A DNA stretch of 19,278 bases, taken from Candidatus Odinarchaeota archaeon. GTDB taxonomy: Archaea > Asgardarchaeota > Odinarchaeia > Odinarchaeales > Odinarchaeaceae. The notes beneath the pieces were generated by a model, which saw only the letters and a program-made list of their open reading frames with translations, was not told the DNA's origin and did not search any database. A program made the translations under genes and the position numbers. Positions 3-16,591 of this stretch are shown piece by piece. Position 1 is the first letter of the stretch. Every line of letters starts with the position of its first letter. The DNA lies in the NCBI GenBank assembly GCA_038826135.1, contig JAWBON010000021.1, positions 1 to 19,278 on the forward strand, in the 5' to 3' direction.

Positions 3-158
3 AACCAGCAGGGCGGAGACTATAATATACCCGTGTTCAACTACTTTGAGCTACTAGCATACTGCTTCGGCCATGAACCCGACGAGTTCGGCGCGTATCT
101 TCACAAACTCGACTATGAGAAAATATTTGAGAAAGCTCAATCAGGGGGTAAATCATAA
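3..158 (+). CDS. hdrB: C-terminal fragment (5'-truncated by the window edge) of a heterodisulfide reductase subunit B-like CCG-family protein
   Basis: Not in the ORF track. My translation of frame 3 is NQQGGDYNIPVFNYFELLAYCFGHEPDEFGAYLHKLDYEKIFEKAQSGGKS*, which resembles the HdrB C-terminal pattern (Y/F)xIPVxxYxQLLxxAxGxxPxExGxxxH. Its stop TAA (156-158) overlaps the next ATG (TAATG). Only 51 aa are visible and the CCG motifs lie outside the window. Confidence 0.62.
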   Translation, partial: NQQGGDYNIPVFNYFELLAYCFGHEPDEFGAYLHKLDYEKIFEKAQSGGKS

Positions 159-457
159 TGGTTAAATTATCTGAAAGACTTAAAAGAAGAACAATTGCTG
201 TAGCTCTTGTATTTCTAAGCCTCGGTATATTAGGATCATTTTTCTCAAGAACACTGGTTGAGTTCTTTCTGATGGCTGAACTGGTGGTTATAACAGCATT
301 CTACGTGTTCTTCTCAATAATAGTTCCAGGCCTTTACCCTAAGAAACGTAATAATGAGGAGATTTTCCTAGGCGGTGTAGCACGCCCCCCATACATCCAC
401 GAATACGAGTTATATGTGCCTAAATCAGCTTTAATATCTGAGGAGGAGGAAACATAG
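158..457 (+). CDS. Small membrane subunit of hydrogenase module 1, two TM helices, possibly MbhI/NuoA-N-terminus-like
   Basis: Two hydrophobic segments followed by a polar loop PKKRNNEEIFLGG, reminiscent of the post-TM loop of MbhI/NuoA (xIF(I/L)SGE / YxCG). Coupled to the genes on both sides. Confidence 0.55.
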   Translation: MVKLSERLKRRTIAVALVFLSLGILGSFFSRTLVEFFLMAELVVITAFYVFFSIIVPGLYPKKRNNEEIFLGGVARPPYIHEYELYVPKSALISEEEET

Positions 458-458
458 T

Positions 459-2024
459 ATGGTCGCAGAGATAATCCTAGCCATATGCCCGCTCATACTA
501 CCTTTATTAGCAGCGTTAGTAGGTTACTTACTCTCTTTGATAAGCGATAATGCTAGAAACGCTGGTATAATATTTGTAATTTCAACAGCTTTCATAATAA
601 ACTCTATATTACTTATTCAAGCGAACCTTGGGGCTTTCACAATCGTTGAACTGGGAGCTTTAATAATAAACGAATCAGGGATATTCGTATCCGAACTAGT
701 ATTATTCCTCTCCCTGCTGGTTATAGTCTATTCAATAAGGTATATGTCCGCTGAACGTGATAAAACATTATATTACGTGTTAATATGCATATTCACCGGG
801 ACCATGAACGGATTAATCTTCTCATTCAATATAATAATACTTTACATGTTTATAGAAGCTTCAACAGTTACCAGCGCTATACTAGTCATGTTCGGTAGAA
901 CGAGAAGAGCTAACAGAGCGGCGATAATATATTTAGCTATCAGCATTCTCGGCGGGTTCTTCATCTTAGGCGCTGAGTTCGTTCTCGTCTCAGCTTCAGG
1001 CGTTGAGCTGTTAACAGATCCAGCGATAGCCTTGGTTTCAGCGGATATAAGGCTGATAATATCTGTTTTAATGCTAGTCGGCTTCGGTGTGAAAGCCGGT
1101 ATTATACCATTCGGTTTTATATGGTTACCTAGAGCCCACGCTGAGGCTCCTTCACCTATAAGCGCGCTTCTTAGCGGTGTTCTCGTCCAAGTAGCAGCCT
1201 TCGCGATGATAAGAACAATCGGCGTGGTGGCGTTCGACATACAGGTCGTTTCACTGCTTTTAATAGTCTTCGGAGTGGGGTCGATGTTATCCGGCTCTCT
1301 ATCCGCTCTCTTCGAAGTATACGGGGTTAAACTAGCGAAATACAGGTTTAACAGAGATATAAAAAGAGTATTAGCCTACTCCACTATAAGCGAGATCGGG
1401 TTCATAATAATGTTAGGCGGTATTCAAGGCTTATTCGGCCCGTTCGCACCGCCTGTGGAGTTTTCAGCTCTCACAGCCATGCTACTCCACTTATACAATC
1501 ACGGCTTCTCTAAAGCACTGCTCTTCTTAGCTGTGGGTGTGATAATGTATTATCTTCATATAAGAGATATAGGCCAGATGGGCGGTTTATCAAAAAGTAT
1601 GCCGATCACCACAACCTCATTCCTTATAGGAGCTTTAAGCCTGGGGATGATTCCACCGTTATTCGGTTACAAGACGATATTTGAATTAGCTTTTGAAATA
1701 CCTTTACCCCTGACGGTGAACATATTTCTCATAGTATCTATAATTACGATAGGGTTGACGTTAGCATTCTATATCTCCGCCTTCACATTTATATTCATAA
1801 AACCCAGACCGAAAGGAGCACTAGGCGATATAAGCGTTGACGCCGCTAAAGTGACGCCGCCCCCAAGGGTGAAATTATATCAGCCGCTGCCTATGATTTT
1901 CCCCGTGGTCTTTATACTACTCGTGGTAATAGCTTTAGGCATACTCTTCTTAAGCGGAATATTAACCGCTTCAACTCTGAATCTTGAACATATAGCGTTC
2001 ACAGTAATAAACCCGGGATTGTGA
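459..2024 (+). CDS. Antiporter-like (MrpD/MbhH/NuoM-N family) membrane subunit of hydrogenase module 1
   Basis: About 14 hydrophobic segments; motifs FIEAST (E133), GFGVKAG (K212), WLPRAHAEAPSPISALLSG, DIKRVLAYSTISEIG, HLYNHGFSKALLFL, DIGQMGGL. SD AGGAGGAGG upstream. Confidence 0.93.
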   Translation: MVAEIILAICPLILPLLAALVGYLLSLISDNARNAGIIFVISTAFIINSILLIQANLGAFTIVELGALIINESGIFVSELVLFLSLLVIVYSIRYMSAERDKTLYYVLICIFTGTMNGLIFSFNIIILYMFIEASTVTSAILVMFGRTRRANRAAIIYLAISILGGFFILGAEFVLVSASGVELLTDPAIALVSADIRLIISVLMLVGFGVKAGIIPFGFIWLPRAHAEAPSPISALLSGVLVQVAAFAMIRTIGVVAFDIQVVSLLLIVFGVGSMLSGSLSALFEVYGVKLAKYRFNRDIKRVLAYSTISEIGFIIMLGGIQGLFGPFAPPVEFSALTAMLLHLYNHGFSKALLFLAVGVIMYYLHIRDIGQMGGLSKSMPITTTSFLIGALSLGMIPPLFGYKTIFELAFEIPLPLTVNIFLIVSIITIGLTLAFYISAFTFIFIKPRPKGALGDISVDAAKVTPPPRVKLYQPLPMIFPVVFILLVVIALGILFLSGILTASTLNLEHIAFTVINPGL

Positions 2025-3778
2025 TTACGATGTCAGATAATATAGTAAGTACTGTAAAAAGTGTTGAAAAATTTAGTATAATCGACGAGGTTAAACTCTT
2101 CCTGAAAGAGATGCTTAAAGAAAACTATATTGAAGAAACACAGATACAGGATAAAAAATATGTGATAAGAACCACACCTGAATATGTGCGATCTATAGCA
2201 GATTACATGATTAGAAGAGATGCTAGACTTGTTCATTTAACCGTATCCGATGAAGGTGTAAACGGTTTCGAGGTTCAATACCATTACGGATTCGACCACC
2301 TTGAAAAAAACACTCATTTCATTATAAAGGTAAGAGTTCCCCGTGAAAGCCCTGAAATCCCATCAATATCACCTATTACATGGCAGGCTTCATGGGCTGA
2401 AAGGGAGATGATGGATTTACTGGGGGTGAAGTTCACCGGACACCCGGATCCACGCCATCTCTTCCTACCATACGAGTGGCCTGAAGAACCTGAAAGCGAG
2501 AGAGTTGACGGATTCAGCTTATACACTAAAAGAGATAAGTCAGCTTATTATATAAGAAAGGAACTCGGCAAATGGGTCCCCCTAGCTTTAAGCCCGGCTG
2601 ACGCTAAACTCACACTTCTACCAATAGGACCTTATCACCCTATGTTTATAGAGTCCGAGTACTTCCGTGTAAGAGTTGAAGGGGATGAAATAGTCGAGGT
2701 GGATATGAAGACAGGTTTCAACCACCGTGGAGTGATGCGGCTTGCTGAGCAGAGACATTACGCTCGAATACCATTCTTAGTGGAACGTGTCTGCGGTATC
2801 TGCAGCACAACTCATGCTACAGCTTACTGTAACACTGTTGAAGCCATGCTTAAACTAGATATCCCTGACAGGGCGAAATATATTAGAACAATAATATTAG
2901 AGCTTGAAAGACTCCACAGCCATCTAATATGGTTAGGTGTAGCCGGGGATCTTATAGGTTTCAAAACACTTTTCATGTGGGCTTTAAGAGATAGAGAGCA
3001 TGTGCTCGATCTTTTCGAGAAGTTAACAGGTAACAGAGTTCATCACGACATAGTGTATCTTGGCGGTGTTAGAAAGGATATAAGTGAAGCTCACATCCCG
3101 GAAATACTTCGAAGAATAGACTTTATTGAAGAATCTGTTAAAAAATATATAGATATGGCTTACGATCACCCGGTTGTGAAAGCTAGAACTATGGATGTAG
3201 GATTACTTACACTTACAACAGCTAAAGACGCTGGGGCGGTTGGTCCAACAGCTAGAGGAAGCGACTGGAAAATAGATGCTAGAAGCTCCAACCCTTACGC
3301 TGCTTACGGCCCAGAGTACACAACCTGGGAGGTTATAACAGAACCGGGGGGAGATGTCTGGTCAAGGCTTGTAGTGAGATTAAAAGAAGCTCTTGTCAGT
3401 TGCGATATAATAAGACAGTCAGTTGAGAGAATGAAGAAAACAAGCCCGGATATTAGAGTGAAGCCTCCGCTTCCAGAGGATGGGGTTGAAGCTGCTAATA
3501 AAACAGAGGCTCCGAGAGGGGAATTATACTATTATATAAAGTCGAATGGGACAAGTATCCCTCACACGGTGAGGATAAGAACTCCAAGCTATAGAAATGA
3601 TGCGGTGCTACCGTTCATGTTAAGAGGGCAAACACTATCCGACGCCCCTATAATTATAGGCAGCATAGACCCATGCTTCTCATGCACTGATAGAATGATT
3701 AGAATAGAGGATACTAAAACAAACCAGGTCAGGTTTGAGAGAATAGGCGATATAGCTAGAAAATACAGGAGGGTTTAA
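2021..3778 (+). CDS. Group 4 [NiFe]-hydrogenase large subunit fused to a NuoC-like domain (HycE/HyfG-type); start may be ATG 2030
   Basis: NuoC motif WAEREMMDLLGVKFTGHPDPRHLFLP; GPYHP; L1 ERVCGIC (C258/C261); ELERLHSHL; EAPRGE; L2 DPCFSCTDR (C552/C555) followed by a C-terminal extension. Confidence 0.96.
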   Translation: MITMSDNIVSTVKSVEKFSIIDEVKLFLKEMLKENYIEETQIQDKKYVIRTTPEYVRSIADYMIRRDARLVHLTVSDEGVNGFEVQYHYGFDHLEKNTHFIIKVRVPRESPEIPSISPITWQASWAEREMMDLLGVKFTGHPDPRHLFLPYEWPEEPESERVDGFSLYTKRDKSAYYIRKELGKWVPLALSPADAKLTLLPIGPYHPMFIESEYFRVRVEGDEIVEVDMKTGFNHRGVMRLAEQRHYARIPFLVERVCGICSTTHATAYCNTVEAMLKLDIPDRAKYIRTIILELERLHSHLIWLGVAGDLIGFKTLFMWALRDREHVLDLFEKLTGNRVHHDIVYLGGVRKDISEAHIPEILRRIDFIEESVKKYIDMAYDHPVVKARTMDVGLLTLTTAKDAGAVGPTARGSDWKIDARSSNPYAAYGPEYTTWEVITEPGGDVWSRLVVRLKEALVSCDIIRQSVERMKKTSPDIRVKPPLPEDGVEAANKTEAPRGELYYYIKSNGTSIPHTVRIRTPSYRNDAVLPFMLRGQTLSDAPIIIGSIDPCFSCTDRMIRIEDTKTNQVRFERIGDIARKYRRV

Positions 3779-3779
3779 T

Positions 3780-4898
3780 GTGGCTGTATATTTACCGGTA
3801 TGGCAGATAATAGTTAGCTGTTTTCTACTACCTGTAGCCGCGTTTTTCTTCGGCATACTCTTCCAAAGCCTTATCAGAAAGTTTACAGCCCGCTTCCAAG
3901 GCCGCAGAGGACCCTGGTATATAGTACCTAAATCTTTAAGACCTGTAGTCGGCTCAACCCGTATCATGCAACCCTTCTGGGATATAATGAAATTAATGTA
4001 TAAGCAGACTTTAATACCCTCCACCGCTCAGAGAAAAATATTCATATCAGCCCCATTTGTAGCCTCGATCAGTCTAGTGATCGCCATCTGGTTCATTCCA
4101 GTTATAGGCATATCACCATTCGGACCTTTCGAATTCAGTCTCATAGTCACCTTATATCTTATGCTAATCGTTCCGTTAACGATTGTAGCCAGCGGGGCTG
4201 CAAGCTCCTCACCCTGGGGTGCTTTAGGAAGCTACAGGGAGGTTATACTCACATTAGCTTATGAACTACCATTCATATTCGGTATATTTTCAACAGCAAT
4301 GTTAACAGGTATACTAACCCCTGTGTACGGTACCCTACCCCAACTACCTGGAAGCCTTTCACTAACAGATATTGTAAACTTTCAAGCCCAGCATTCAATA
4401 TCCGTGCTCGGATATAAAATACCAGCCTACTTTTTAATAGTAAACCCGTTCTCAGCGATTGCTATTATAATGAGTTTAATAGGTAAGCTTAAAATAAAGC
4501 CGATGGATATACCTGACGCAGAAGTTGAGGTTATAGCAGGATCATACACAGAGTACACTGGAAAACTGTTAGGTTTCTATGAGATAGCTAAGATACTGTT
4601 ATTATTCGTAAGCTTGACATTATTCATAGACATGTATCTTGGAGGAGCTTTAGTTACAATAAACTATTTCGGCGTTCCATCATTTATATGGAGTGGAATA
4701 GTATTCGGAGTTGAAATGATAATACTAATCTTAATAGTCTCGATTATCAACGCTGCTAATGCACGTTTTAGAATAGATCAAGCTTTCACATGGTATCTTA
4801 AAATACCATTAGTTTTAAGTTTAATCGGCTTAGCCTGGCCTTATATTATGGCGTCAATAGCAGCTGCAGGGGTGAACATAGGTATAAGCATAGTTTAG
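3780..4898 (+). CDS. NuoH/HycD/MbhM/EchB-family membrane anchor subunit (module 1)
   Basis: RKFTARFQGRRGP...QPFWDIMKLMYKQ, AYELP, PMDIPDAEVEVIAGSYTEYTG, NARFRIDQ; about 8 TM segments; GTG start with AGGAGG upstream. Confidence 0.94.
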   Translation: MAVYLPVWQIIVSCFLLPVAAFFFGILFQSLIRKFTARFQGRRGPWYIVPKSLRPVVGSTRIMQPFWDIMKLMYKQTLIPSTAQRKIFISAPFVASISLVIAIWFIPVIGISPFGPFEFSLIVTLYLMLIVPLTIVASGAASSSPWGALGSYREVILTLAYELPFIFGIFSTAMLTGILTPVYGTLPQLPGSLSLTDIVNFQAQHSISVLGYKIPAYFLIVNPFSAIAIIMSLIGKLKIKPMDIPDAEVEVIAGSYTEYTGKLLGFYEIAKILLLFVSLTLFIDMYLGGALVTINYFGVPSFIWSGIVFGVEMIILILIVSIINAANARFRIDQAFTWYLKIPLVLSLIGLAWPYIMASIAAAGVNIGISIV

Positions 4899-4908
4899 GA
4901 GGCTGGTT

Positions 4909-5517
4909 ATGGTTAAAGGTAAAATAAAACTGTTAAAAGAAGCTTTGCGAAGCAGTAAAGACATCCAGACACTAGACTACCCGGGTGGGAATCCTGAGAT
5001 AGATTATTCAGAGCCGAGGTTCGGCAGCGGAGCGAAATACAGTCACGTATGCGAGGGGCTCAGAGGAGCACCTAAATATAGTGAGGATGACTGCTGCGGC
5101 TGTGCTGCATGTGAAAGCGTTTGCACCGCTAATACTATAAAAGCGGAAGATGTTAACGGGAAAAGAATATTTACAATAGACCTTGGCAGATGCGTTTTCT
5201 GCGGCAGATGCGAGGAGGAATGCCCTGAAGATGCTATAAAACTGACTACTAAATTCGAGTTAACATATACAAGCCCAGCTGTTCAAAGCCCTGAAAACAT
5301 CAGGTTTGAAAGAGATCTCATATTATGCGAGAAATGCGGTAATGTTGTAGCTCCTGTAAAACAATATGACATATACTCTGAGAAAGTTGTTAAAAATCTT
5401 GGTGAAGAATGGAGAGAGAAAAGTAAAGAGGATGTTGAAAAAGCTAGAAAACTTTGCAGAGAATGTCGTAGAAAAAATGCTTATACACTTAATTTACATA
5501 CCAGAAAATATTATTAG
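4909..5517 (+). CDS. HycF/NuoI-like 2x[4Fe-4S] subunit with a C-terminal CxxC...CxxC domain (module 1)
   Basis: TLDYP...LRGAP; CCGCAACESVCT and CVFCGRCEEECP; additional CEKC and CREC; SD AGGAGG. Confidence 0.9.
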   Translation: MVKGKIKLLKEALRSSKDIQTLDYPGGNPEIDYSEPRFGSGAKYSHVCEGLRGAPKYSEDDCCGCAACESVCTANTIKAEDVNGKRIFTIDLGRCVFCGRCEEECPEDAIKLTTKFELTYTSPAVQSPENIRFERDLILCEKCGNVVAPVKQYDIYSEKVVKNLGEEWREKSKEDVEKARKLCRECRRKNAYTLNLHTRKYY

Positions 5518-5528
5518 GAGAGTAAAAT

Positions 5529-5972
5529 ATGGGTTTGAAGCAAAAATCAAGATTGTATTCACCTTGGGTTTTCCACGCCCATTGCAGCGGCTGTAATGGT
5601 TGCGGTATTGAAATAGCAGCTGCCTTAAACCCCAGGTATGATCCTGAGAGAGTAGGGGTCACACTGCATAATAATCCCAGGCACGCGGATATAATGTTAG
5701 TTGAAGGCATAGTAGCAAAACAGCATGTACCATTCCTTAAAAGAACCTACGATCAGATGCCTACTCCGAAAGCGGTTGTAGCGATAGGCTCATGCGCGAT
5801 AACCGGTGGCGTATTTAAACCAGACGATGATAAAGGACCCTCATACACTCAAGGCGGACCTGTTGATAAAATAATACCTGTAGATGTTTACGTGCCAGGA
5901 TGTCCACCTAAACCTGAAGCTATAATAGACGGTGTTATAAAAGCAGCTATCATACTATCTAAAAGAGATTAG
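5529..5972 (+). CDS. Group 4 [NiFe]-hydrogenase small subunit (HycG/EchC/MbhJ, NuoB-like), module 1
   Basis: CSGCNGCGIE, NPRHADIMLVEG, VAIGSCAITGG, VDVYVPGCPPKPEAI. Confidence 0.95.
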   Translation: MGLKQKSRLYSPWVFHAHCSGCNGCGIEIAAALNPRYDPERVGVTLHNNPRHADIMLVEGIVAKQHVPFLKRTYDQMPTPKAVVAIGSCAITGGVFKPDDDKGPSYTQGGPVDKIIPVDVYVPGCPPKPEAIIDGVIKAAIILSKRD

Positions 5973-6093: not shown

Positions 6094-6777
6094 GTGTACT
6101 TCATGATAAGCTTATTTGAGATATTAGTGACGATTATATTATTTCTATGGGTTGCATTCGTGGTAACAGTTTTAACTAAAAAACTATATAAGGTTCTAAC
6201 TGCTCGAGGTTTTGAGCACACGATAGCGGTTTACTATAATCGTAAAGTAATACATATGCTAGCTGGTGGTGTATCCGCTATAGTTGTACCTTTCGTTTTC
6301 GCAACCCCTATTCTACCCCTGGTTTTCGCAGCTTTATTAGCTGTATTCATATATATACCCCACAGGACAGGTAAGCTGATGAACTGGTTCCAAGTGTGTG
6401 AGAACTGTTATGAAGTGTCATTCGCGATAATGTGGGGTGCTGTAATAACAATAGGCTGGTACTTCTCGGGAGGTAACTTCTGGTTTGGAGTTTTACCAGC
6501 GTTATTTATGGCGTTCGGAGACGCTATAACAGGCGTGGTTAGAAACGCCATATATAAGAGAAGAACAAAATCCTGGTATGGGAATCTGGCCATGGCATCG
6601 GTGACAATACCAACCGGTGTGATACTTGGACCCATGGGAGTTATTAGCGGATTTATAGCTAGTATAATAGAGCATTTCGAGTTCAAGTTTATAGATGACA
6701 ATATCACAGTTCCAGCTGTCACGCTGATACTCCTTCTTACAGTAAACTATTTCTTCCCCGGCTTCCTCTCATTCTAA
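6094..6777 (+). CDS. Dolichol/phytol-kinase-like membrane protein (CTP-dependent cytidylyltransferase family); start may be ATG 6103
   Basis: Multi-TM protein with RKVIHML, AFGDAITGVVR...KRRTKSWYG and IDDNITVP, typical of the DolK/VTE5/CTP_transf_1 family. Confidence 0.78.
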   Translation: MYFMISLFEILVTIILFLWVAFVVTVLTKKLYKVLTARGFEHTIAVYYNRKVIHMLAGGVSAIVVPFVFATPILPLVFAALLAVFIYIPHRTGKLMNWFQVCENCYEVSFAIMWGAVITIGWYFSGGNFWFGVLPALFMAFGDAITGVVRNAIYKRRTKSWYGNLAMASVTIPTGVILGPMGVISGFIASIIEHFEFKFIDDNITVPAVTLILLLTVNYFFPGFLSF

Positions 6778-6798: not shown

Positions 6799-7914
6799 GT
6801 GTTAAATGACGCGTTTAAGCCATTCACATTAGGGTCTTTGAAATTAGATAACCGGTTTGTGATGGCCCCTGTCTGGATGGGTATGGCTGACGAGAAAGGG
6901 GGTGTGACAGATCATCTGGTTGAACACTACAGGGAGATCGCCGCATCCGGTATAGGTTTAATTATAACAGAGTATGCGTTTATAAAATCCGGGCACCAGA
7001 TACTGCCACGAATGCTGGGAATAGGAGAAGACAGCCAGATAGAGGGGTTGAAGAGAATAGTTAAAGCAGTCCATAAAGAAGGCGCTAAGATATTTATACA
7101 GTTAGCGGATTGCGGTTTCAACTCAGATCCAAAGTATAATCCTGAAGGTTTAATCTACGGACCATCTATAATAGATTTAAAAGGGTACAGTGAAGCTGAA
7201 TCGATGGGTGTTTTAACCAATGAAAATAAACATGTGATAAGAGCTTTAAGCCTAGAGCAGATAAGAGAGAAAGCGAAATTCTTCGGGGAAGCAGCGGCTA
7301 GAGCTTTTAAAGCGGGGTTCGACGGAGTGGAGCTTCACGCCGCCCACTCATATTTGATCTCACAATTCTTATCAGACTTATATAATAAGAGATGTGACGA
7401 GTACGGTGGCAGCCTGGAAAATAAGATGAGGTTTCTGGTGGAAGTTTACAGTGAAGTTAGAAAAATTTTAGGATCTAAACCTATATCGGTGAGGCTTAAC
7501 GGAGAGGATGGGGTTGCAGGCGGAATTACAATAGATGAAACTGTTCAGGTTGCTAAGAGACTTGAAAAACTTGGATGTGAATTATTATCTGTAAGCGGTG
7601 GAACACCTGAGAAAACAGGGATATTGAAAGAGGAGGAGGAAGCGTATTTCTCCTGTTTTTCTAAGAAGATTAAGAAAAATGTGAAAACACCTATTCTTTT
7701 AACAGGCGGTATTAGAACACCTAAAATAATAGATAAATTACTAAAAGAGAAAGCCTGTGATCTAATAGGTTTAGCCAGACCCCTGATAGCTGAACCCGGG
7801 CTGTTACTGAGATGGAGAAGCGGGGATTTAAGAAAAGCGAAGTGTATCTCCTGTAATAAATGCTTTTACGAAGAGGGTCTTAGCAAATATGTTAACTGCC
7901 CTGTTTTTAAATAA
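6799..7914 (+). CDS. NADH:flavin oxidoreductase (Old Yellow Enzyme family) with a C-terminal Fe-S motif
   Basis: NRFVMAP, GIGLIITE, AGFDGVELHAAHSYLISQFLS, NKRCDEYGGSLENKMRF, GLARPLIAEP, CISCNKC. Confidence 0.94.
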   Translation: MLNDAFKPFTLGSLKLDNRFVMAPVWMGMADEKGGVTDHLVEHYREIAASGIGLIITEYAFIKSGHQILPRMLGIGEDSQIEGLKRIVKAVHKEGAKIFIQLADCGFNSDPKYNPEGLIYGPSIIDLKGYSEAESMGVLTNENKHVIRALSLEQIREKAKFFGEAAARAFKAGFDGVELHAAHSYLISQFLSDLYNKRCDEYGGSLENKMRFLVEVYSEVRKILGSKPISVRLNGEDGVAGGITIDETVQVAKRLEKLGCELLSVSGGTPEKTGILKEEEEAYFSCFSKKIKKNVKTPILLTGGIRTPKIIDKLLKEKACDLIGLARPLIAEPGLLLRWRSGDLRKAKCISCNKCFYEEGLSKYVNCPVFK

Positions 7915-7955
7915 ATATTTAAAAATTTTAAGATAACAGCACAGATTTTATCCTA

Positions 7956-9320
7956 TTAGATTAATACCGGTAGAAATAGGCCTAGCAAAGCCACCTCAAC
8001 ATATAATATAAATGAGGAGGCGGCTACTTCCACTATGGAGAGTATTGAACCTACTTTCAGATATTCTTTAAGTGTTATTTTCAATCCTCCCCTTCGAATA
8101 ACATCAAACCACATTAATATCGCTAAAGATCCGATGGGGAAGAAATGAGGGCCAATATTATTACCTATAATATTTGAGAAAATCATGTTAGTTCCTAAAC
8201 TAGGGGTTAAACTCATAGATGTTATAACCTGTCTTATAGAAACTAATCCCAATAAGGTCATTGGCCAGTTATTCATAAAACTTGCCAACACGGTTACTAT
8301 TAACGCAGGTGAGATAAATCCCAGATACGACGGCATTGATGAAGATGAAGCCAGCAAAAAGCCTACGAAATCTATCATCCCGGCTTCACCAAGCCCGTGA
8401 ACAACTATAAATATTCCGATCATGAAAACCAGTATTCCCCAGTTAACCTCTCTTAAAAGTTTCAAAACTGGTTTAGGACAATAAGAAGCCGGGTCCATTC
8501 TACTAGAGAGAGTATAGTATACAATTAATAGGAAGAACGCCCCGGAGCATATTACAATTGATACAGGTATTCTAATAAAAGATGTTAACACATACCCTAA
8601 ATCCACCACTATGAGGGTGGCGAATATAATTCTGAGTAAAACATTAGATTTAGCAATAAGACTGCAATCTAAATTAACGTTTTGAGCTTCATATACCACA
8701 GGAATCTTATTTTTAAAAAATAAGTATACTACAAGTATACTAAAAACTACCGTCACAACCGACACTGGACCCATGAATATAAGGTGGTCTATAAAAGTAT
8801 ATTTGAAAAAGTCAGCGCTCACTATATTAACCGGGTTACTGGTTATAAGAGGCATCGCAGCCGTGTCAGCCACAAATCCGGCTGCAAACAAGTAGACCAG
8901 ACGTGAGCCCCCTTTAAAATTTAACTGATGGGTAATCTCCACTACTATAGGTGTAAGAATCAATATAGCCGAGTCGTTTGCGAACAAAATACTGACAGCT
9001 GCTGTCAGTAAAGCTATATATATGTATAATTTTTTACCGTTCCCTTTAGCGTAACCTATAATTTTTAAAGCCGCCCATTTAAAGAAGCCCATAGCGTCTA
9101 AAGTTAGGGAGAGCAGGATTATACCGAAAAAAGCTAAAGCTGCATCCCATATATCTGATAGCGCTTCAACAGCTTCAAAAACGGTGACAGTCCCGAATAG
9201 TAGGGAGAGGCCAGCGCCGATAGTAGCAGTCACACCTATGTTTAAACCTTTAGGCCGTTTTATTACTAGAAATACAGTTATAATAAAAATTAAAATAGAA
9301 GCTACGGCTTTTATCTCCAT
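7956..9320 (-). CDS. arsB: ArsB-family arsenite/antimonite efflux permease (ArsB/NhaD superfamily)
   Basis: About 12 TM segments; IWDAALAF, LDAMGFFKWAAL, LFANDSAILILTPIV, AGFVADTAAMPLITSNPVNIVSADFF, MNNWP and NNIGPHFFPIGSLAILMW all resemble ArsB motifs. Confidence 0.82.
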   Translation of the reverse strand: MEIKAVASILIFIITVFLVIKRPKGLNIGVTATIGAGLSLLFGTVTVFEAVEALSDIWDAALAFFGIILLSLTLDAMGFFKWAALKIIGYAKGNGKKLYIYIALLTAAVSILFANDSAILILTPIVVEITHQLNFKGGSRLVYLFAAGFVADTAAMPLITSNPVNIVSADFFKYTFIDHLIFMGPVSVVTVVFSILVVYLFFKNKIPVVYEAQNVNLDCSLIAKSNVLLRIIFATLIVVDLGYVLTSFIRIPVSIVICSGAFFLLIVYYTLSSRMDPASYCPKPVLKLLREVNWGILVFMIGIFIVVHGLGEAGMIDFVGFLLASSSSMPSYLGFISPALIVTVLASFMNNWPMTLLGLVSIRQVITSMSLTPSLGTNMIFSNIIGNNIGPHFFPIGSLAILMWFDVIRRGGLKITLKEYLKVGSILSIVEVAASSFILYVEVALLGLFLPVLI

Positions 9321-10029: not shown

Positions 10030-10368
10030 ATGATCACCATGTTAGATGTAATATGGGTTCCGATAGCTTTCATAATAATTCTAATAGCGACGGCTGCAAT
10101 CTATGCTTGGGGTAGAAGAGTAGCCCCCCCGTCGAGAAAAAAGGGGGAAGCGCTTGAAACCTACGCGTGCGGTGAGGAACAAACTGATGTTCACACACAT
10201 TTCAGAATAAACTGGTTTTATTACGCAGTATACTTTATGATATTTGATATTATAGCGTTCATACTCACCTTCGGAGCATTCCAACTAGGGATTCTACCAG
10301 CAGTTTACGCGGTAGTACTCTACGGAGCAGTCTCATTAATAGCAATAATAGTTTTATTAAGGGGGTAA
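10030..10368 (+). CDS. NuoA/NdhC-like three-TM membrane subunit (module 2); start may be ATG 10039
   Basis: TM1, loop LETYACGE, then FRINWFYYAVYFMIFDII (NuoA pattern Y...A..F..FD) and TM3. Confidence 0.85.
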   Translation: MITMLDVIWVPIAFIIILIATAAIYAWGRRVAPPSRKKGEALETYACGEEQTDVHTHFRINWFYYAVYFMIFDIIAFILTFGAFQLGILPAVYAVVLYGAVSLIAIIVLLRG

Positions 10369-10373
10369 ATTTT

Positions 10374-10826
10374 ATGAGTAAACTTGTAGATTGGGCGAGG
10401 AGAAGCTCACCTTGGCTTCTACATTTTAATTCAGGCAGCTGCAACGGCTGCGACATAGAAATTCTAGATGCGTTAATGCCCAGATTTGATCTGGAGAGAT
10501 TTGGAGCGCTTCTTAAAGGAAGTCCAAGACACGCAGATGTTTTAGTCTGCACTGGACCTGTTACAAGACAGCAGGCGCCGCGTCTTAGAAGAATATACGA
10601 GCAGATGCCGGATCCTAAATTCGTAATGGTTGTAGGCACATGCGGTTCAACCGGTGGCGTATTCAGGGGATGCTATAATAATGCTGAGGGAATCGATAAC
10701 GTAATACCGGTGGATGTTTATGTTCCAGGCTGCCCTGCAAGACCTGAAGCTATTGAATTAGGAGCTGTTAAACTGTTAGAGAAGCTTAAAAAAGTCCAGC
10801 AGCAGGCTAGAGGTGAAAAGAAATGA
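10374..10826 (+). CDS. Group 4 [NiFe]-hydrogenase small subunit (NuoB-like), module 2
   Basis: WARRSSPW, GSCNGCDIE, SPRHADVLVCTGPVT, EQMPDPKFVMVVGTCGSTGG, VDVYVPGCPARPE. Confidence 0.95.
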   Translation: MSKLVDWARRSSPWLLHFNSGSCNGCDIEILDALMPRFDLERFGALLKGSPRHADVLVCTGPVTRQQAPRLRRIYEQMPDPKFVMVVGTCGSTGGVFRGCYNNAEGIDNVIPVDVYVPGCPARPEAIELGAVKLLEKLKKVQQQARGEKK

Positions 10827-12556
10827 CTGAGTTAACTCAATTACCTAAAACTGAAGAATTAAAAAATGAATATGAGATAGTTGAAGAGTTAAAAACCCTA
10901 CTAGGCAGCGACTTATTAGAATATAAGGTTCCACGCGTTAACCGGGTCTGGATTACCGTCCCTAATGGCAAACACTATAAGGTAGCTGAATATTTATATA
11001 ATAAAATGGGTGTCTGGTTCATAAGCACTGTCACCGGACTTGACTTAAAAGATCACTTTGAAGTATTATTCCACTTCTTAGATATGCAGAGAAAAGTTGA
11101 GATCACTGTGCGAGTACCTGTCTCAAAAGATAAACCTGAATTAGAGTCTCTAACAGATTTTTATCCAGGTGCAAATCTTTACGAGAGAGAAGTCTATGAC
11201 ATGTTTGGCATTGTTTTTAAAGGTCACCCTAATCTTAAAAGACTTCTATTAGCGGAAACATTTCCAAAGGGAGAACATCCTCTACGTAAAGACTGGACAC
11301 CTGATAAATGGGATCCTAAAAAAGTTAAGCTTATTCAAAGACAACCAATCACACCTGAGACTTCAGACGATTATGTACTCCAAGTTGGACCTCAAACCCC
11401 GACATTAAAAGAACCGATGAATTTTGAAGTTATATTAGATGGTGAAATAGTAGTGGACATTATACCGCACATCGAATATAATCATCGAGGTTTAGAGAAA
11501 GCCTTCGAGCAGAGAACATTCATTCAAGGAATTTACTTAGCTGAAAGAGTGTGCGGTATTTGCAGCCAAGCACACACACTACCATACTGTGACGCAGTAG
11601 AACAGTTACTAGGCGTCCAAGTTCCACCGAGAGGAAAATATATTCGTACAATGGTGGCAGAGTTCAACAGAATCCACAGCCATCTTCTCTGGATAGGAGT
11701 GGCATGTCATCTCATAGGCTGGGATACAATGTTCATGTACAGTTGGAGGGATCGAGAAGTAATCTTAGATTTAACAGACCTTGTATGTGGAAGCAGAGTA
11801 ACAGCCGCTATTAACACAATCGGAGGGGTTAGAAGAGACGTAACGGATGATGAGATCCATAAGATAAGAAAAGGCATGGACATATTGGAGAAAAGAACTA
11901 AAACATATAAGAAAATAGTATTTGAAGAAGATACATTATTGAAAAGAGCTGTTGGAGTAGGCTACTTGAACCCATCATACCTTAAGGCTATGAGCGCTGT
12001 AGGGCCTGTAATAAGAGGTTCAGGTGTTAAAACAGATGTAAGATACGATGACCCTCATTTCGGCGCTTACGATGAAATACCATTCAATGTATGCACATCA
12101 GATATGTGTGATATCGCTGGCAGACTACTTGTGAGAGTTGATGAATTAATAGAGTCAGTGAATATGATAAGATATATTTTAGACCACCTGCCAAGCGGTG
12201 AAGTGAGAACTAAGGTTCCTAGAAGAGTACCTGCAGGTGAAGCTGTAAGCCATAATGAGGCTCCAAGAGGGGAAGTATTCTACTATATTAAATCCAACGG
12301 CACAGATAAACCTGAAAGAGTTAAGATTATAACACCTACAATGGCTAATCTTTTACCGATAATAGAGTCATGTAAAGGCCATTACCTAGCAGACTTTGTA
12401 TTAAACTTCGGAAGCATAGACCCTTGCATTGCATGCATGTGTAGGACAACATTTACAGATATATCTAAGAAACAGCCTAAACAATGGGTTTGGACAGATG
12501 AGCAGATGAGACAGTATAGTATAGAATGGTATCAGAATAAAGGATGGAGGAAGTGA
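10823..12556 (+). CDS. Group 4 [NiFe]-hydrogenase large subunit fused to a NuoC-like domain (NuoCD-type), module 2
   Basis: NuoC motif YEREVYDMFGIVFKGHPNLKRLLL...HPLRKD; HRGLEK; L1 ERVCGIC (C244/C247); EFNRIHSHL; EAPRGE; L2 DPCIAC (C535/C538); ATGA overlap with the upstream gene. Confidence 0.95.
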   Translation: MTELTQLPKTEELKNEYEIVEELKTLLGSDLLEYKVPRVNRVWITVPNGKHYKVAEYLYNKMGVWFISTVTGLDLKDHFEVLFHFLDMQRKVEITVRVPVSKDKPELESLTDFYPGANLYEREVYDMFGIVFKGHPNLKRLLLAETFPKGEHPLRKDWTPDKWDPKKVKLIQRQPITPETSDDYVLQVGPQTPTLKEPMNFEVILDGEIVVDIIPHIEYNHRGLEKAFEQRTFIQGIYLAERVCGICSQAHTLPYCDAVEQLLGVQVPPRGKYIRTMVAEFNRIHSHLLWIGVACHLIGWDTMFMYSWRDREVILDLTDLVCGSRVTAAINTIGGVRRDVTDDEIHKIRKGMDILEKRTKTYKKIVFEEDTLLKRAVGVGYLNPSYLKAMSAVGPVIRGSGVKTDVRYDDPHFGAYDEIPFNVCTSDMCDIAGRLLVRVDELIESVNMIRYILDHLPSGEVRTKVPRRVPAGEAVSHNEAPRGEVFYYIKSNGTDKPERVKIITPTMANLLPIIESCKGHYLADFVLNFGSIDPCIACMCRTTFTDISKKQPKQWVWTDEQMRQYSIEWYQNKGWRK

Positions 12557-13608
12557 AAATGGTTTTAGATATCTTTCTAGGAATACTTCAAATAGTCTTA
12601 TTCCCGGGAATAGTATTCTGCATAGGTTTAACATTCCTACTTGAATGGATAGATAGAAAATACTATGCTGATCTTCAGAATAGAATGGGGCCGCTTTACG
12701 TCGGCTGGAAAGGTATACTGCAACCATTCGCAGATTTCATCAAATTAATGGCTAAGGAAGACATTGTACCTGAGGCAGCTGACAGGAAAATGTTCACAGC
12801 AACACCTTTACTCTCAGTAGCTGTTCCTCTGCTAGGCCTTTTATTTATCCCGATTGCAAACATCACGGGCTTACTCAGCTTCCAAGGTGATCTAATCTTT
12901 GTACTGTTCCTAACAACAACGATTGCCATATTAATAATCTTGGCCGGGTATTCTTCAATGAACCAGTACAGTTCAATAGGTGCTGCTAGAGCAGGCTTAC
13001 AGTTAATGGGTTATGAAATACCCTTTACACTCGCAGCTCTCACCCCAGCGATGATAGCTAGAAGCTTGACAATAACAGGAATAGTTCAATACCAGGCTTT
13101 TGCAGGCATGACGCTACTAATATTCCCTGGTATGATAGCGTTCGGTGTATTTATAGCAACTTTACTACCTGAATTAGAGAAGATACCGATGGATATACCG
13201 GAGGCTGAAACCGAGCTTGTAGCAGGATGGCAGACCGAGTTCAGCGGTAAAAAATACGCTTTCTTACGCTTATCAAATAATCTGGAGCTGCTTTTAGGCG
13301 CTGGGCTTGCAGTAACATTATTCCTCGGAGGCCCATATGGTATAGAGAAACTACCTGGATTAACAGCACTGGACTTAGCGATTCAAGGAAACATTATAAT
13401 ATCAGCCGTATGGTATACGGTGTGGTTTTTAATTAAGACAGCGGTCGTTGTGTTAATAGTGACGAATCTGAGAACTTTATTCTCAAGGTACAGAATAGAT
13501 CAGATGGTAAGAGGTGCATGGAAATATTTAACACCACTTATGATAGGGGTTACAATTATAACCCTACTTTTAAGCGCTATAGCGCCCGGTTTATATCCAA
13601 TAATTTAG
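12544..13608 (+). CDS. NuoH-family membrane subunit (module 2); true start likely ATG 12559
   Basis: DRKYYADLQNRMGP..VG.KGILQPFADFIKLMAKE, GAARAGLQLMGYEIP, PMDIPEAETELVAGWQTEFSG, RYRIDQ. Confidence 0.95.
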   Translation: MEEVKMVLDIFLGILQIVLFPGIVFCIGLTFLLEWIDRKYYADLQNRMGPLYVGWKGILQPFADFIKLMAKEDIVPEAADRKMFTATPLLSVAVPLLGLLFIPIANITGLLSFQGDLIFVLFLTTTIAILIILAGYSSMNQYSSIGAARAGLQLMGYEIPFTLAALTPAMIARSLTITGIVQYQAFAGMTLLIFPGMIAFGVFIATLLPELEKIPMDIPEAETELVAGWQTEFSGKKYAFLRLSNNLELLLGAGLAVTLFLGGPYGIEKLPGLTALDLAIQGNIIISAVWYTVWFLIKTAVVVLIVTNLRTLFSRYRIDQMVRGAWKYLTPLMIGVTIITLLLSAIAPGLYPII

Positions 13609-13621
13609 AGGTGAAACATTA

Positions 13622-14002
13622 ATGGTTAGAAAACTAGGTGCGATGGAAACTGAGCTGTTAAAAAATCTTACAAAGAAGAGAGCTACCTTACTGTATCCTT
13701 TTCAAAAACTAGAACTCCCTGACGCATACAGAGGATTATGGAGTTTTGATATTAACAAATGTACAGGATGTGGATTATGCTCCAAAGACTGTCCGAGCGG
13801 TGCAATAGAGCTTAAACCTACAGAGAAAACCAAGGCGGGCAGATACCCGATTAACTATGTTAGCAGATGTTTATTCTGCTCTCAATGCCAGGAAGTCTGC
13901 CCAACAGGCGCTATTAAAATGACACCTGTATATGAGCTTTCAGATTACCGTAAAAAAATAATAGACGCTGAAGCCCCAGACGGATACAGGTATGAGGGTT
14001 AA
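13622..14002 (+). CDS. NuoI-like 2x[4Fe-4S] ferredoxin subunit (module 2)
   Basis: ATLLYP...YRG; CTGCGLCSKDCP and CLFCSQCQEVCP; SD GAGGTGA. Confidence 0.94.
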   Translation: MVRKLGAMETELLKNLTKKRATLLYPFQKLELPDAYRGLWSFDINKCTGCGLCSKDCPSGAIELKPTEKTKAGRYPINYVSRCLFCSQCQEVCPTGAIKMTPVYELSDYRKKIIDAEAPDGYRYEG

Positions 14003-16523: not shown

Positions 16524-16591
16524 ACAAGCTTTTACAAGGTAAAGCTCTCAAAAAATTAAAAGTAATAAGTTATTAATTCTATTAGCTTAAA

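Follow-up and report, generated by a model that had tools for sequence, protein, structure and literature searches.

Membrane-bound hydrogenases that are associated with HdrB, a heterodisulfide reductase subunit, are already in the literature: Kohtz et al. 2022 (PMC9723716) described HdrB-associated group 4 hydrogenases on the basis of prediction, and their account of the Ehd complex of Methanomethylicia refers to Borrel et al. 2019. We found no literature report of an HdrB-associated group 4 hydrogenase in Asgard archaea. The initial annotation of the DNA studied here, which comes from an Odinarchaeia archaeon (Odin), mentioned Ehd as proposed in a few lineages and barely characterised. This account of Ehd was correct, but the kind is less obscure than supposed, as four named variants have been published.

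Ehd (Methanomethylicia; Methanosuratincola verstraetei) and the 'Ehd-like' clusters of Bathyarchaeia contain the same nine-gene set as Odin, and their large subunits are 44–57% identical to the Odin protein and fall in one clade with it. The arrangement differs. In Odin, the Hdr module comes first and hdrB overlaps a gene for a protein with two transmembrane helices (2-TM), whereas in Methanosuratincola Ehd the antiporter gene comes first and hdrB adjoins the large-subunit gene. The substrate proposed for Ehd, CoM-S-S-CoB, should not be available to the Odin enzyme, given a host without Mcr, HdrA and MvhD. Drh of Methanocellales and related clusters of Methanomicrobiales belong to the same clade and show the same Fe-S/91-aa/HdrB/2-TM/large/NuoH/HycF/small series as Odin. 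However, their hosts are methanogens, while the Odin host is a non-methanogen; moreover, unlike in Odin, the antiporter gene is missing from the cluster at the Methanocellaceae locus and follows the small-subunit gene in Methanoregula, Methanoculleus and Methanospirillum. Ehe of Culexarchaeia is likewise an HdrB-associated group 4 hydrogenase of a non-methanogen host, with GcvH at the cluster (PMC9723716), and Odin is alike in HdrB and host. Ehe is co-located with SdhA, CdhA and HdrA2B2C2 (Kohtz et al. 2022), none of which is present at the Odin locus. One Ehe-type locus (L030) was seen in our comparison.

Three other systems share parts with the Odin operon. Counterparts of HycB, HycF, HycG, HycD and HycC of E. 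coli FHL-1 (PDB 7z0s) are all encoded in it, but where FHL-1 has FdhF, an HdrB-family protein and a 91-aa protein would sit at the end of the wire in Odin. Identity as a formate hydrogenlyase was considered and rejected, with no molybdopterin/FdhF gene found in the window operon or in same-genus operons. In the soluble methanogen complex HdrABC-MvhAGD (PDB 5odc), HdrB is homologous to the Odin protein over its full length, with both non-cubane sites in common. The C-terminal half of HdrC is matched by the Odin 91-aa protein, and its ferredoxin domain is replaced by a four-cluster protein. The hydrogenase of that complex belongs to group 3c, whereas that of Odin is membrane-bound and of group 4; and because Odin lacks HdrA and MvhD, flavin-based bifurcation of the HdrABC-MvhAGD kind is not expected. 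Finally, the sulfur-oxidising sHdr-LbpA system (PMC6067878) offers a parallel in which, away from methanogenesis, an HdrB-type site cooperates with a lipoylated GcvH-like protein. Unlike Odin, sHdr is soluble, contains HdrA, two HdrB/HdrC pairs and sulfur transferases, and has no attached hydrogenase.

A predicted nine-gene operon cut by a contig end

The window, i.e. the whole 19,278-nt stretch analysed (C21:1-19278), has a first base that coincides with the end of contig C21, and hence there is no sequence further upstream on this contig. The seven genes for which coordinates are given below lie on the + strand. A second group 4 hydrogenase is encoded in the same window.

The first frame (3..158) is open from the first bases of the window and ends in a TAA stop at 156-158. 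It represents the 3' end (last 51 codons) of an hdrB-like gene, the remainder of which lies in an assembly gap. The stop overlaps the ATG (158-160) of the 2-TM gene as TAATG, and the same overlap is seen at hdrB in three same-genus genomes. The subsequent junctions are a 1 nt gap (457/459), a 4 nt overlap (2021/2024) and gaps of 1 nt (3778/3780), 10 nt (4898/4909) and 11 nt (5517/5529). The initial annotation had noted the TAATG overlap, a six-gene group 4 module and later gaps of 11 nt or less, and the junctions are as it described.

Contig C1 of the same genome ends, facing outward, in the first 128 residues of an Fe-S protein gene (92% identity), which is the gene preceding hdrB in same-genus genomes. 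Because C1 ends in this gene, the synteny of the same-genus genomes also holds in this genome, across a gap of ∼1.1 kb between C1 and C21; codons 1-242 of hdrB and the gene for the 91-aa protein fall in the unassembled part. In same-genus genomes the full operon comprises nine genes with the Hdr module first, in the order HycB-like four-cluster Fe-S protein, 91-aa protein, HdrB, 2-TM protein, NuoL-like antiporter subunit, HycE-like large subunit, NuoH-like, HycF-like and HycG-like subunits. The genes overlap or are closely packed, with an AT-rich region only upstream of the Fe-S gene. Three same-genus genomes, including one assembled as a single 1.418-Mb contig, carry the complete operon, as do two genomes of a sister family. 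On this comparison, the window appears to hold the downstream seven-ninths of one nine-gene operon of an Odinarchaeia (Asgard) archaeon.

The hydrogenase core

The large subunit (2021..3778) is of the HycE type, with a NuoC-like domain fused at its N-terminus (PF00329, PF00374 and PF00346). It carries both NiFe-ligand cysteine pairs, RVCGIC...H and DPCFSC..R, followed by a C-terminal extension; C258, C261, C552 and C555 are invariant in 16 homologues, and among solved chains E. coli FHL subunit 5 (7z0s_E, E = 6e-85) is the nearest. The small subunit (5529..5972), of the NuoB/HycG type (PF01058, Oxidored_q6, E = 4.3e-34), has the cysteine pattern CxxCxxC ... GSC ... GCPP (single proximal cluster). 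The HycF/HyfH-like subunit (4909..5517; NF009053, formate hydrogenlyase iron-sulfur subunit, E = 3.5e-29) contains two [4Fe-4S] motifs and two further CxxC pairs close to its C-terminus.

Three membrane proteins complete the module. One is a NuoH/HycD-like subunit (3780..4898; PF00146, NADHdh, E = 3.1e-54). Another is a putative ion-translocating, antiporter-like subunit of the NuoL/HycC/MbhH type (459..2024) with a Proton_antipo_M domain (PF00361, E = 3.7e-42), whose top-scoring NCBIfam families are hydrogenase 4 subunit B and hydrogenase membrane subunit. The third, the 99-aa 2-TM protein (158..457), has an invariant Glu in helix 2 and a conserved GG-x-A-x-PPY motif. It is possibly NuoK-like, the profile matches to NuoK/ND4L chains being weak (E = 0.06–0.3), and its homologues occur within the Ehd-type clusters of Methanosuratincola, Baldrarchaeia, Bathyarchaeia and the sister family. 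Judged by its NiFe cysteines and its NuoB-type small, NuoH-like and antiporter-like subunits, the predicted enzyme is a group 4 (energy-converting, membrane-bound) [NiFe]-hydrogenase.

An HdrB-family protein with two complete CCG motifs

The 51-aa frame had been taken for the C-terminus of HdrB, and this identification holds. Although an HMM search with the fragment alone, as the initial annotation had proposed, gives only a weak TIGR03288 (HdrB) match (positions 249-289 of 290, E = 1.2e-3), the frame aligns at 94–98% identity with the C-terminal 50-51 residues of a ∼299-aa open frame in three same-genus genomes, and is 98% identical to a 293-aa PF02754 (CCG) protein in a protein collection. 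Counted from its start codon, the ∼299-aa frame is this 293-aa protein, with two complete CCG motifs. It matches a solved HdrB (5odc_B) over the full length (E = 1.5e-58), and all ten CCG cysteines, which form two CX(n)CCX(n)CXXC motifs, are unchanged across 12 homologues. The Odin protein thus probably retains two non-cubane [4Fe-4S] sites. Its TIGR03288 score (230 bits) falls below the curated cut-off (345.15), and hence we regard it as an HdrB-family protein and not an equivalog of methanogen HdrB. The genus has no other HdrB, and its sole further CCG protein is a GlcF-like subunit adjoining a GlcD-like gene.

Two proteins that may stand in for HdrC

A search upstream of the fragment, for a full two-CCG hdrB together with hdrC and hdrA, had also been proposed. 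In the same-genus operons the full hdrB is there, but no canonical hdrC or hdrA lies upstream of it; genes for the HycB-like and 91-aa proteins are found instead. The Fe-S protein has 16 invariant cysteines, and among solved structures it is closest to four-cluster subunits of the HycB/HydN type, with FHL subunit 2 and HDCR HycB3/4 among them. The profile of the 91-aa family matches four solved HdrC chains, over C-terminal residues only (∼110-184; E = 4e-8 to 2e-5). It seems, then, that the role of HdrC is divided between a HycB-like four-cluster protein and a 91-aa counterpart of the HdrC C-terminal half. The Methanosuratincola Ehd cluster likewise has a HycB-like protein and a 91-aa homologue instead of canonical HdrC.

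When the Fe-S protein was modelled together with HdrB and the 91-aa protein, the score was 0.75, versus 0.01 for the best of three controls, although this pass may reflect likeness to HdrBC, whose structure has already been solved. In a benchmark, the 0.75 mark was attained by 58/80 solved complexes and 2/110 mismatched pairs. Model runs share at least 94% of contacts, with partner pLDDT of at least 88, and in the modelled interface the Fe-S protein presents its first and last cluster motifs to the CCG-motif regions of HdrB. The model thus favours an interaction between the Fe-S protein and HdrB with the 91-aa protein. An onward link to the HycF-like subunit is predicted by analogy with formate hydrogenlyase.

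Phylogeny and synteny

The initial annotation proposed phylogenetic placement of the large subunit and a comparison of hdrB-hydrogenase synteny in related genomes. In a tree of 92 large subunits, with subgroup names assigned from organism and synteny, the Odin protein falls in a 23-row clade (SH-aLRT 99) with Methanosuratincola, Methanomethylicus and Methanocellaceae. This clade holds both Ehd and Drh and corresponds to the "Ehd/Drh" HdrB-associated hydrogenases of Methanomethylicia, Bathyarchaeia, Baldrarchaeia and Methanocellales/Methanomicrobiales. The nearest non-Odin large subunits come from Bathyarchaeia (57% identity), Baldrarchaeia (48%), Methanosuratincola (44–45%) and Methanocella (41%); that of a Methanomethylicia MAG is 48% identical. 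Full-length hdrB lies within 7 kb of the large-subunit gene in 20/23 rows of the clade, and the window's own row is among the other three solely because the start of the contig cuts its hdrB short.

Synteny is indeed conserved, being kept in the genus, the sister family and several other archaeal classes, with genes that overlap or abut. Gene order is shuffled among lineages, yet hdrB remains inside the cluster: it adjoins the large-subunit gene in Baldrarchaeia and Methanosuratincola, and lies between NuoC-like and NuoD-like genes in three loci. The Bathyarchaeia contig with the nearest non-Odin large subunit (L022) keeps the Fe-S and 91-aa genes while hdrB is absent, so the hydrogenase can apparently exist without HdrB. 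Ehd-type large subunits were found in only 14 of 400 sampled Asgard genomes, in four families.

Proposed reaction and alternatives

A search of four genus genomes, including a closed one, detected no McrA, HdrA, MvhD or ComA. Because the ComA control missed Methanosarcina, the failure to find ComA says little about coenzyme M. These data indicate that the genus is non-methanogenic, a possibility that the initial annotation had raised, that the disulfide is other than CoM-S-S-CoB, and that HdrB is not part of a bifurcating HdrABC complex. Odin HdrB would then work with the hydrogenase only. All of the checks proposed in the initial annotation that could be carried out favour its interpretation.

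Our reading, which we consider probable, is that the operon encodes an Ehd-type, HdrB-associated, ion-coupled hydrogenase that interconverts H2 plus a disulfide other than CoM-S-S-CoB and thiols, without HdrABC bifurcation. We infer that the nine products form one complex, for which the following electron path, ion coupling and substrate are predicted. In formate hydrogenlyase, HycB connects formate dehydrogenase to HycF. By analogy, the HycB-like four-cluster protein would connect the HdrB-family protein, rather than a formate dehydrogenase, to the HycF-like subunit, and the 91-aa protein, which resembles the C-terminal part of HdrC, would anchor HdrB to the rest of the module. The core resembles formate hydrogenlyase and Ech, with HycE-, HycG-, HycF-, NuoH- and NuoL-like subunits and the small 2-TM protein. 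The reaction would be H2 + R-S-S-R' <-> 2 thiols, coupled to ion translocation. In the forward direction, the disulfide would accept electrons from H2 oxidation and an ion gradient would be built; in reverse, gradient-driven thiol oxidation would evolve H2.

A refinement of this reading, tentative and rather unlikely in our estimation, is that the substrate of HdrB is the lipoyl group of a dedicated 'KWVG type' GcvH paralogue, which would serve as a protein-bound dithiol/disulfide carrier between the HdrB site of the hydrogenase and a second CCG enzyme, i.e. a GlcD/GlcF-like or LutAB-like 2-hydroxyacid (lactate) dehydrogenase. In the paralogue the lipoyl-lysine is retained, E-[ST]-x-K-W-V-G replaces E-S-x-K-A, and there is a conserved C-terminal tail; its gene lies 3.4 kb upstream of the operon in the genus, and canonical GcvH is encoded elsewhere, near GcvT. 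The paralogue gene directly follows the Ehd-type small-subunit gene in two Bathyarchaeia genomes, where GlcD-like and GlcF/HdrD-like genes come next (Odin homologues of the GlcD/GlcF pair are 50% and 35% identical). In a third, LutA-like and LutB-like genes come after the paralogue gene, which is divergent from the 91-aa/hdrB genes. Methanogens with Ehd or Drh clusters have canonical GcvH alone, or no GcvH. The Ehe cluster contains GcvH as well, according to Kohtz et al. (PMC9723716), and lipoate-binding GcvH-like proteins are essential partners in the sulfur-oxidising Hdr-like system (PMC6067878). Co-occurrence is poor, however: the paralogue is found in many Asgard families (43–63% identity), compared to the 14/400 genomes with Ehd-type large subunits, and the Asgard family with split large subunits (f12) mostly lacks it. 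In the Odin order the paralogue is paired with an arginyl-tRNA synthetase gene, and in the sister family this pair adjoins A-type ATPase genes and not the hydrogenase, so its proximity in the genus may be incidental. Candidate dihydrolipoyl dehydrogenases are also encoded in the genome. If the lipoyl reading were true, the complex would be an ion-translocating H2:lipoyl-protein oxidoreductase linking CCG-type 2-hydroxyacid dehydrogenases with a membrane hydrogenase, and a protein-bound disulfide would be the non-methanogenic archaeal equivalent of CoM-S-S-CoB.

Ferredoxin is the usual partner of group 4 hydrogenases, Odinarchaeia are predicted fermenters in the literature, and one close Bathyarchaeia relative is missing hdrB while keeping the rest of the cluster. 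An ordinary ferredoxin-dependent, H2-evolving enzyme of the Ech/Mbh type, with co-transcribed HdrB, Fe-S and 91-aa genes whose products form a separate soluble enzyme or an electron-entry module lacking thiol chemistry, nevertheless strikes us as improbable: hdrB is nested among hydrogenase genes in several lineages (three times at the NuoC-like/NuoD-like position), all ten cluster cysteines of the thiol-reactive HdrB site are invariant, the HycB-like protein belongs to a type that joins catalytic subunits to HycF, and the window's other group 4 hydrogenase could fill the ferredoxin role.

It is more doubtful still that the HdrB-like subunit acts in the manner of SdhE or TfrB, reducing fumarate, an organic acceptor or a quinone-like carrier and not a disulfide. 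The second-best NCBIfam match of Odin HdrB is NF042965 (SdhE anchor, methylmenaquinol:fumarate reductase, E = 2.4e-31), TfrB matches too, and SdhA/SdhB-like genes adjoin GcvH and the hydrogenase in a Culexarchaeia-like cluster; but the true HdrB match is far stronger, and no SdhA- or TfrA-like gene was found in or near the Odin operon. Least credible of all is reduction of CoM-S-S-CoB, as proposed for methanogen Ehd and Drh, since the likeness of Odin HdrB to methanogen HdrB (E = 1.5e-58), comparable at the profile level to that among methanogen HdrBs, and the presence of methanogen enzymes inside the large-subunit clade are set against the lack of detectable McrA, HdrA, MvhD and ComA in the four genus genomes.

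Implications

To our knowledge, no membrane hydrogenase associated with HdrB has been purified, although the group has been put forward as a second route, non-bifurcating in nature, that couples H2 to disulfide reduction and ion pumping. The Odin enzyme extends this known, predicted kind to a non-methanogenic Asgard archaeon. With a small genome, a closed relative, a sole HdrB and no HdrA, MvhD or Mcr, Odinarchaeia provide an unusually clean case and hence a good study system. The sequence comparisons also suggest a concrete architectural model, in which the "HdrC" of such clusters would be two proteins, a HycB-like wire and an HdrB-clamping HdrC tail. Asgard archaea are the closest archaeal relatives of eukaryotes, and the case of Odinarchaeia bears both on how they handle H2 and on the role of the heterodisulfide-reductase site outside methanogenesis.

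Identity of the contig-end fragment and its operon

The genome to which the window belongs comprises 1.26 Mb in 105 contigs and is 93% complete, with the window corresponding to one of these (C21) in full; public records list homologues of its proteins under the names Candidatus Odinarchaeia or Odinarchaeota. The initial annotation held that a 51-aa frame at the start of the contig resembles the C-terminus of HdrB. This frame (3–158) runs open from the very start of the window to a TAA at 156–158, the final A of which is also the A of the ATG at 158, so the described TAATG overlap at 156–160 is indeed there. A G-rich Shine-Dalgarno-like stretch lies ~10 nt 5′ of that ATG. Because the fragment sits at the contig end, the upstream region is unreadable on C21. 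The peptide alone had no match in Pfam and matched, weakly, the last 41 positions of TIGR03288 (HdrB) in NCBIfam (E=1.2e-3); its identity was settled by genomes of the same genus. In three of these, one a single 1.418-Mb contig, an open frame of ~299 aa has a C-terminus 94–98% identical to the peptide, and the protein collection contains a 293-aa PF02754 protein with 98% identity, together with other Odinarchaeia proteins named HdrB family. The full gene encodes both CCG motifs.

Six products are encoded downstream, identified by profile searches as a 99-aa protein with two transmembrane segments (NuoK-like matches marginal at best), an antiporter-like subunit, a fused NuoC-like/[NiFe] large subunit, a NuoH-like subunit, a HycF-like 2x[4Fe-4S] protein and a NuoB-type small subunit, in that order. 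The junctions are +1, −4, +1, +10 and +11 nt, and the six-gene, closely packed group 4 hydrogenase module proposed earlier is thereby confirmed. The large subunit contains both NiFe-binding pairs (RVCGIC...H and DPCFSC..R), with a C-terminal extension beyond the second. Its closest solved relative is HycE of Escherichia coli formate hydrogenlyase (E=6e-85), followed by MbhL of Pyrococcus. The small subunit has the pattern CxxCxxC ... GSC ... GCPP, and the HycF-like protein carries two additional CxxC pairs besides its two [4Fe-4S] motifs.

Behind its own AT-rich spacer, the next gene (6094–6777) encodes a 227-aa multi-pass membrane protein with no match in Pfam or NCBIfam. In the sister family, as in the same-genus genomes, unannotated genes of 204–224 aa take this position after the small-subunit gene.

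Upstream genes point to a split HdrC

In the same-genus genomes, the operon begins after an AT-rich spacer beside a divergent gene, with two genes preceding hdrB, the third. The first encodes an Fe-S protein of 160–174 aa (Pfam Fer4_11) whose 16 cysteines fall into four CxxCxxCxxxC(P)-type motifs; among solved structures it is closest to HycB/HydN-type subunits, including subunit 2 of E. coli formate hydrogenlyase and HycB3/HycB4 of hydrogen-dependent CO2 reductase. The second, whose start overlaps the Fe-S gene (ATGA), encodes a cysteine-free protein of 91 aa, for which neither Pfam nor NCBIfam gave a match. Another contig of the window's own genome, C1, ends within the Fe-S gene, the initial 128 codons of which are present and directed off the contig (92% identity), and carries the arginyl-tRNA synthetase gene and the remaining neighbours in the order of the closed genome. 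These features indicate that the ends of C1 and C21 face each other across a gap of ~1.1 kb, which should contain the 91-aa gene and hdrB codons 1–242.

Full-length HdrB aligns end to end with the solved structure of Methanothermococcus thermolithotrophicus HdrB (5odc_B, E=1.5e-58). It has kept both Cx(n)CCx(n)CxxC motifs, and a comparison of 12 homologues from six lineages showed no variation in any of the ten cysteines. Its TIGR03288 score of 230 bits falls under the curated cut-off of 345, making it a family member and not an equivalog. Homologues of the 91-aa protein, with a YPLRK motif and the same cluster position, occur in the sister family, Baldrarchaeia, Bathyarchaeia and Methanosuratincola. 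A family profile from seven sequences, searched against the PDB, matched only four HdrC chains, at C-terminal residues ~110–184 (E=4e-8, 5e-8, 1.6e-6 and 1.8e-5; next matches from E=0.2). Since the profile matches only this part of HdrC, and a four-cluster Fe-S protein is encoded separately, these comparisons argue that ‘HdrC’ is split in these clusters: a HycB-like four-cluster protein would take the place of the ferredoxin domain, and the C-terminal half would be free-standing. Thus, of the HdrC looked for upstream, a canonical gene is missing and these two putative counterparts are present.

We also built, with alignments, a three-chain model of HdrB, the 91-aa protein and the Fe-S protein, the last being scored as the partner. 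It scored 0.75 against HdrB plus the 91-aa protein, compared to 0.01 for the best of three controls; 58 of the 80 solved complexes attain the mark used, against 2 of the 110 mismatched pairs. Contact agreement between runs was at least 94%, and partner pLDDT at least 88. In the modelled interface, two stretches of the Fe-S protein near its first and last cysteine motifs (residues 16–29 and 126–134) lie against three stretches of HdrB near the CC and C158 motifs (residues 49–55, 157–162 and 187–215). The model supports the Fe-S protein as a binding partner of HdrB plus the 91-aa protein. One caveat here is that solved HdrB–HdrC complexes exist, so the pass may come from likeness, and it is best read as predicted compatibility with the HdrB module rather than as binding.

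Related clusters in other archaea

‘HdrB-interacting’ group 4 hydrogenases have been described by Kohtz et al. (2022, PMC9723716): Ehd in Methanomethylicia (citing Borrel et al. 2019), Ehe in Culexarchaeia, Drh in Methanocellales and Ehg in Nezhaarchaeia, as well as an ‘Ehd-like’ cluster that groups with Bathyarchaeia. That study places Ehd, Ehe and Drh in a clade of their own and proposes ion translocation coupled to H2:disulfide oxidoreduction. A 2025 cultivation paper found Ehg to be expressed and mentions an Ehd-like complex for another family (PMC12700198). The HdrB-linked kind is thus already known, by prediction.

The nearest large subunits outside Odinarchaeia are from Bathyarchaeia (57% identity), Baldrarchaeia (48%), Methanomethylicia (44–48%, including cultured Methanosuratincola) and Methanocella arvoryzae (41%). 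The Ehd locus of Methanosuratincola verstraetei has the same nine genes as the Odinarchaeia operon but in a different order (2-TM, antiporter, Fer4_11, small unknown, CCG, large, NuoH, HycF-like, small subunit), and in the Baldrarchaeia locus hdrB overlaps the large-subunit gene. We scanned the 80 best loci, one genome per species, with HMMs made from Odin, Baldr, Bathy and Methanosuratincola proteins, and computed a tree of 92 large subunits over their NuoD-like part. In it, the window's large subunit falls in a 23-row clade with SH-aLRT of 99, the only support measure in this quick search. Clade members come from Odinarchaeia, the sister family, Bathyarchaeia, Baldrarchaeia, Methanomethylicia, Methanocellaceae and three Methanomicrobiales genera. 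Full-length hdrB was scored within 7 kb of the large subunit in 20 of the 23 rows; the window's row counts among the other three for the sole reason that so short an hdrB fragment cannot be scored. The stop of hdrB was seen, across lineages, to overlap the following hydrogenase gene or to lie directly against it, leaving no room for an internal promoter. The hdrB–hydrogenase linkage is conserved from the genus and its sister family to other archaeal lineages. Of 400 genomes sampled within the phylum, only 14, from four families, encode a large subunit of this type (E<=1e-125).

Several loci show variations. At the base of the tree's other half are additional hdrB-linked clusters, belonging to Hermodarchaeia, Asgardarchaeum and further Bathyarchaeia. 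In three of these loci (L059 of Asgardarchaeum abyssi, and L078 and L079 of Bathyarchaeia), the large subunit is split, with hdrB between the NuoC-like and NuoD-like genes, and the HMM scan detected no 91-aa gene. The Bathyarchaeia contig with the nearest non-Odin large subunit (L022) keeps the four-cluster Fe-S and 91-aa genes and lacks hdrB, with two short 2-TM-like frames at the expected place. In Drh-type clusters of Methanoregula, Methanoculleus and Methanospirillum (L040, L042 and L043), an antiporter-like gene comes straight after the small-subunit gene, unlike in the Methanocellaceae Drh locus (L038). These Methanomicrobiales versions may therefore be ion-coupled.

Candidate partners and electron path

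Four genomes of the genus yielded no McrA, MvhD or ComA, in keeping with the suggestion of a non-methanogen. HdrA, sought upstream with HdrB and HdrC, was likewise not found in any of the four, its model matching only ferredoxin-domain and dinucleotide-fold fragments; both HdrA and MvhD are present in the sister family. It follows that HdrB cannot act in a bifurcating HdrABC complex in this genus, and that CoM-S-S-CoB is unlikely to exist there. Just two CCG proteins are encoded, the operon's HdrB and a GlcF/HdrD-like protein beside a GlcD-like FAD oxidase, along with four [NiFe] large subunits, the window accounting for two.

The genus thus has the parts, with their motifs and their conserved clustering, and lacks other partners for HdrB. 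We infer that the products assemble into one complex. By analogy with formate hydrogenlyase, electrons would leave the NiFe site for the proximal cluster of the small subunit, pass through the two clusters of the HycF-like subunit and the four of the HycB-like protein, and reach the non-cubane clusters of HdrB. A disulfide would be reduced there or, in the reverse direction, a dithiol oxidized, and the NuoH-like and NuoL-like subunits would couple the redox step to ion movement. Order, direction, coupling and substrate are all conjectural in this scheme.

A more novel candidate for the substrate is a lipoyl protein. The genus has two GcvH proteins, a canonical one near GcvT (P-protein genes are also present) and a second, 3.4 kb upstream of the operon (C1, 3323–3751), that keeps the lipoyl-lysine in the sequence E-T-G-K-W-V-G and has a conserved C-terminal tail. 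Such KWVG-type proteins, with E-[ST]-x-K-W-V-G at the lipoyl-lysine and the conserved tail, show 43–63% identity across Asgard families and occur in addition to canonical GcvH. The Ehe cluster contains a GcvH gene (Kohtz et al. 2022, PMC9723716), and the sHdr-LbpA system is a precedent for a lipoyl-protein partner of Hdr (PMC6067878). In two Bathyarchaeia genomes, the KWVG-type gene directly follows the small-subunit gene of Ehd-type clusters and precedes GlcD-like and GlcF/HdrD-like genes, whose products are 50% and 35% identical to the Odinarchaeia pair; in a third, the genes after it are LutA-like and LutB-like, and it is oriented divergently to 91-aa/hdrB. Methanogens with Ehd-type clusters have canonical GcvH only, or none. 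These arrangements suggest that KWVG-type GcvH might shuttle between the two CCG enzymes. However, the paralogue is widespread in Asgard families without the hydrogenase, and one hydrogenase-bearing family mostly lacks it. Its gene pairs with that for arginyl-tRNA synthetase in the Odinarchaeia order, and the pair is sited elsewhere in the sister family. Among 400 Asgard genomes we found no co-occurrence with Ehd-type large subunits, the paralogue being widespread and the hydrogenase rare, and hence we downgraded this possibility from doubtful to improbable. The genus also encodes two PF02852 proteins, candidate dihydrolipoyl dehydrogenases, and the idea that the hydrogenase is the only means of re-oxidizing GcvH was dropped on that account. 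The explanation we favour remains an Ehd-type, HdrB-linked and putatively ion-coupled hydrogenase.

Neighbouring gene clusters

A second group 4-type module in the window (10030–14002) encodes NuoA-like, NuoB-like, fused NuoCD-like large, NuoH-like and 2x[4Fe-4S] subunits in complex I order. RVCGIC and DPCIAC are kept in its large subunit, which lies in another clade of the tree than the HdrB-linked enzyme, among Bathyarchaeia enzymes. It has no adjacent antiporter gene. In the closed same-genus genome, ~6 kb upstream of the Hdr module (L014, 14781–19001), a NuoL/M/N-like run lies beside a gene for an Arf-like GTPase and has no genes for catalytic subunits around it; possibly this run is the pump module of the second hydrogenase. 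The two hydrogenase clusters are parted in the genus by genes at 6799–9320, for an Old Yellow Enzyme-type flavin oxidoreductase (6799–7914) and an ArsB/CitMHS-type permease (7956–9320, minus strand), and are almost contiguous in the sister family. Further along, a LeuA/homocitrate synthase-like gene (14117–15628) precedes a de novo NAD synthesis cluster of aspartate dehydrogenase-like, NadA and NadC genes (15696–18398).

An Asgard member of a proposed enzyme family

Asgard metabolism papers mention group 4 hydrogenases of Odinarchaeota and do not mention a link to HdrB, and our text searches of the literature turned up no Asgard archaeon with a reported Ehd-type complex. The lineage therefore appears to be new for this enzyme. 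The reading of the locus as an HdrB-linked group 4 hydrogenase holds in our analysis, and the operon is an Asgard case of an enzyme kind already proposed, with a predicted function. The dissection of ‘HdrC’ into two proteins likewise appears to be new.
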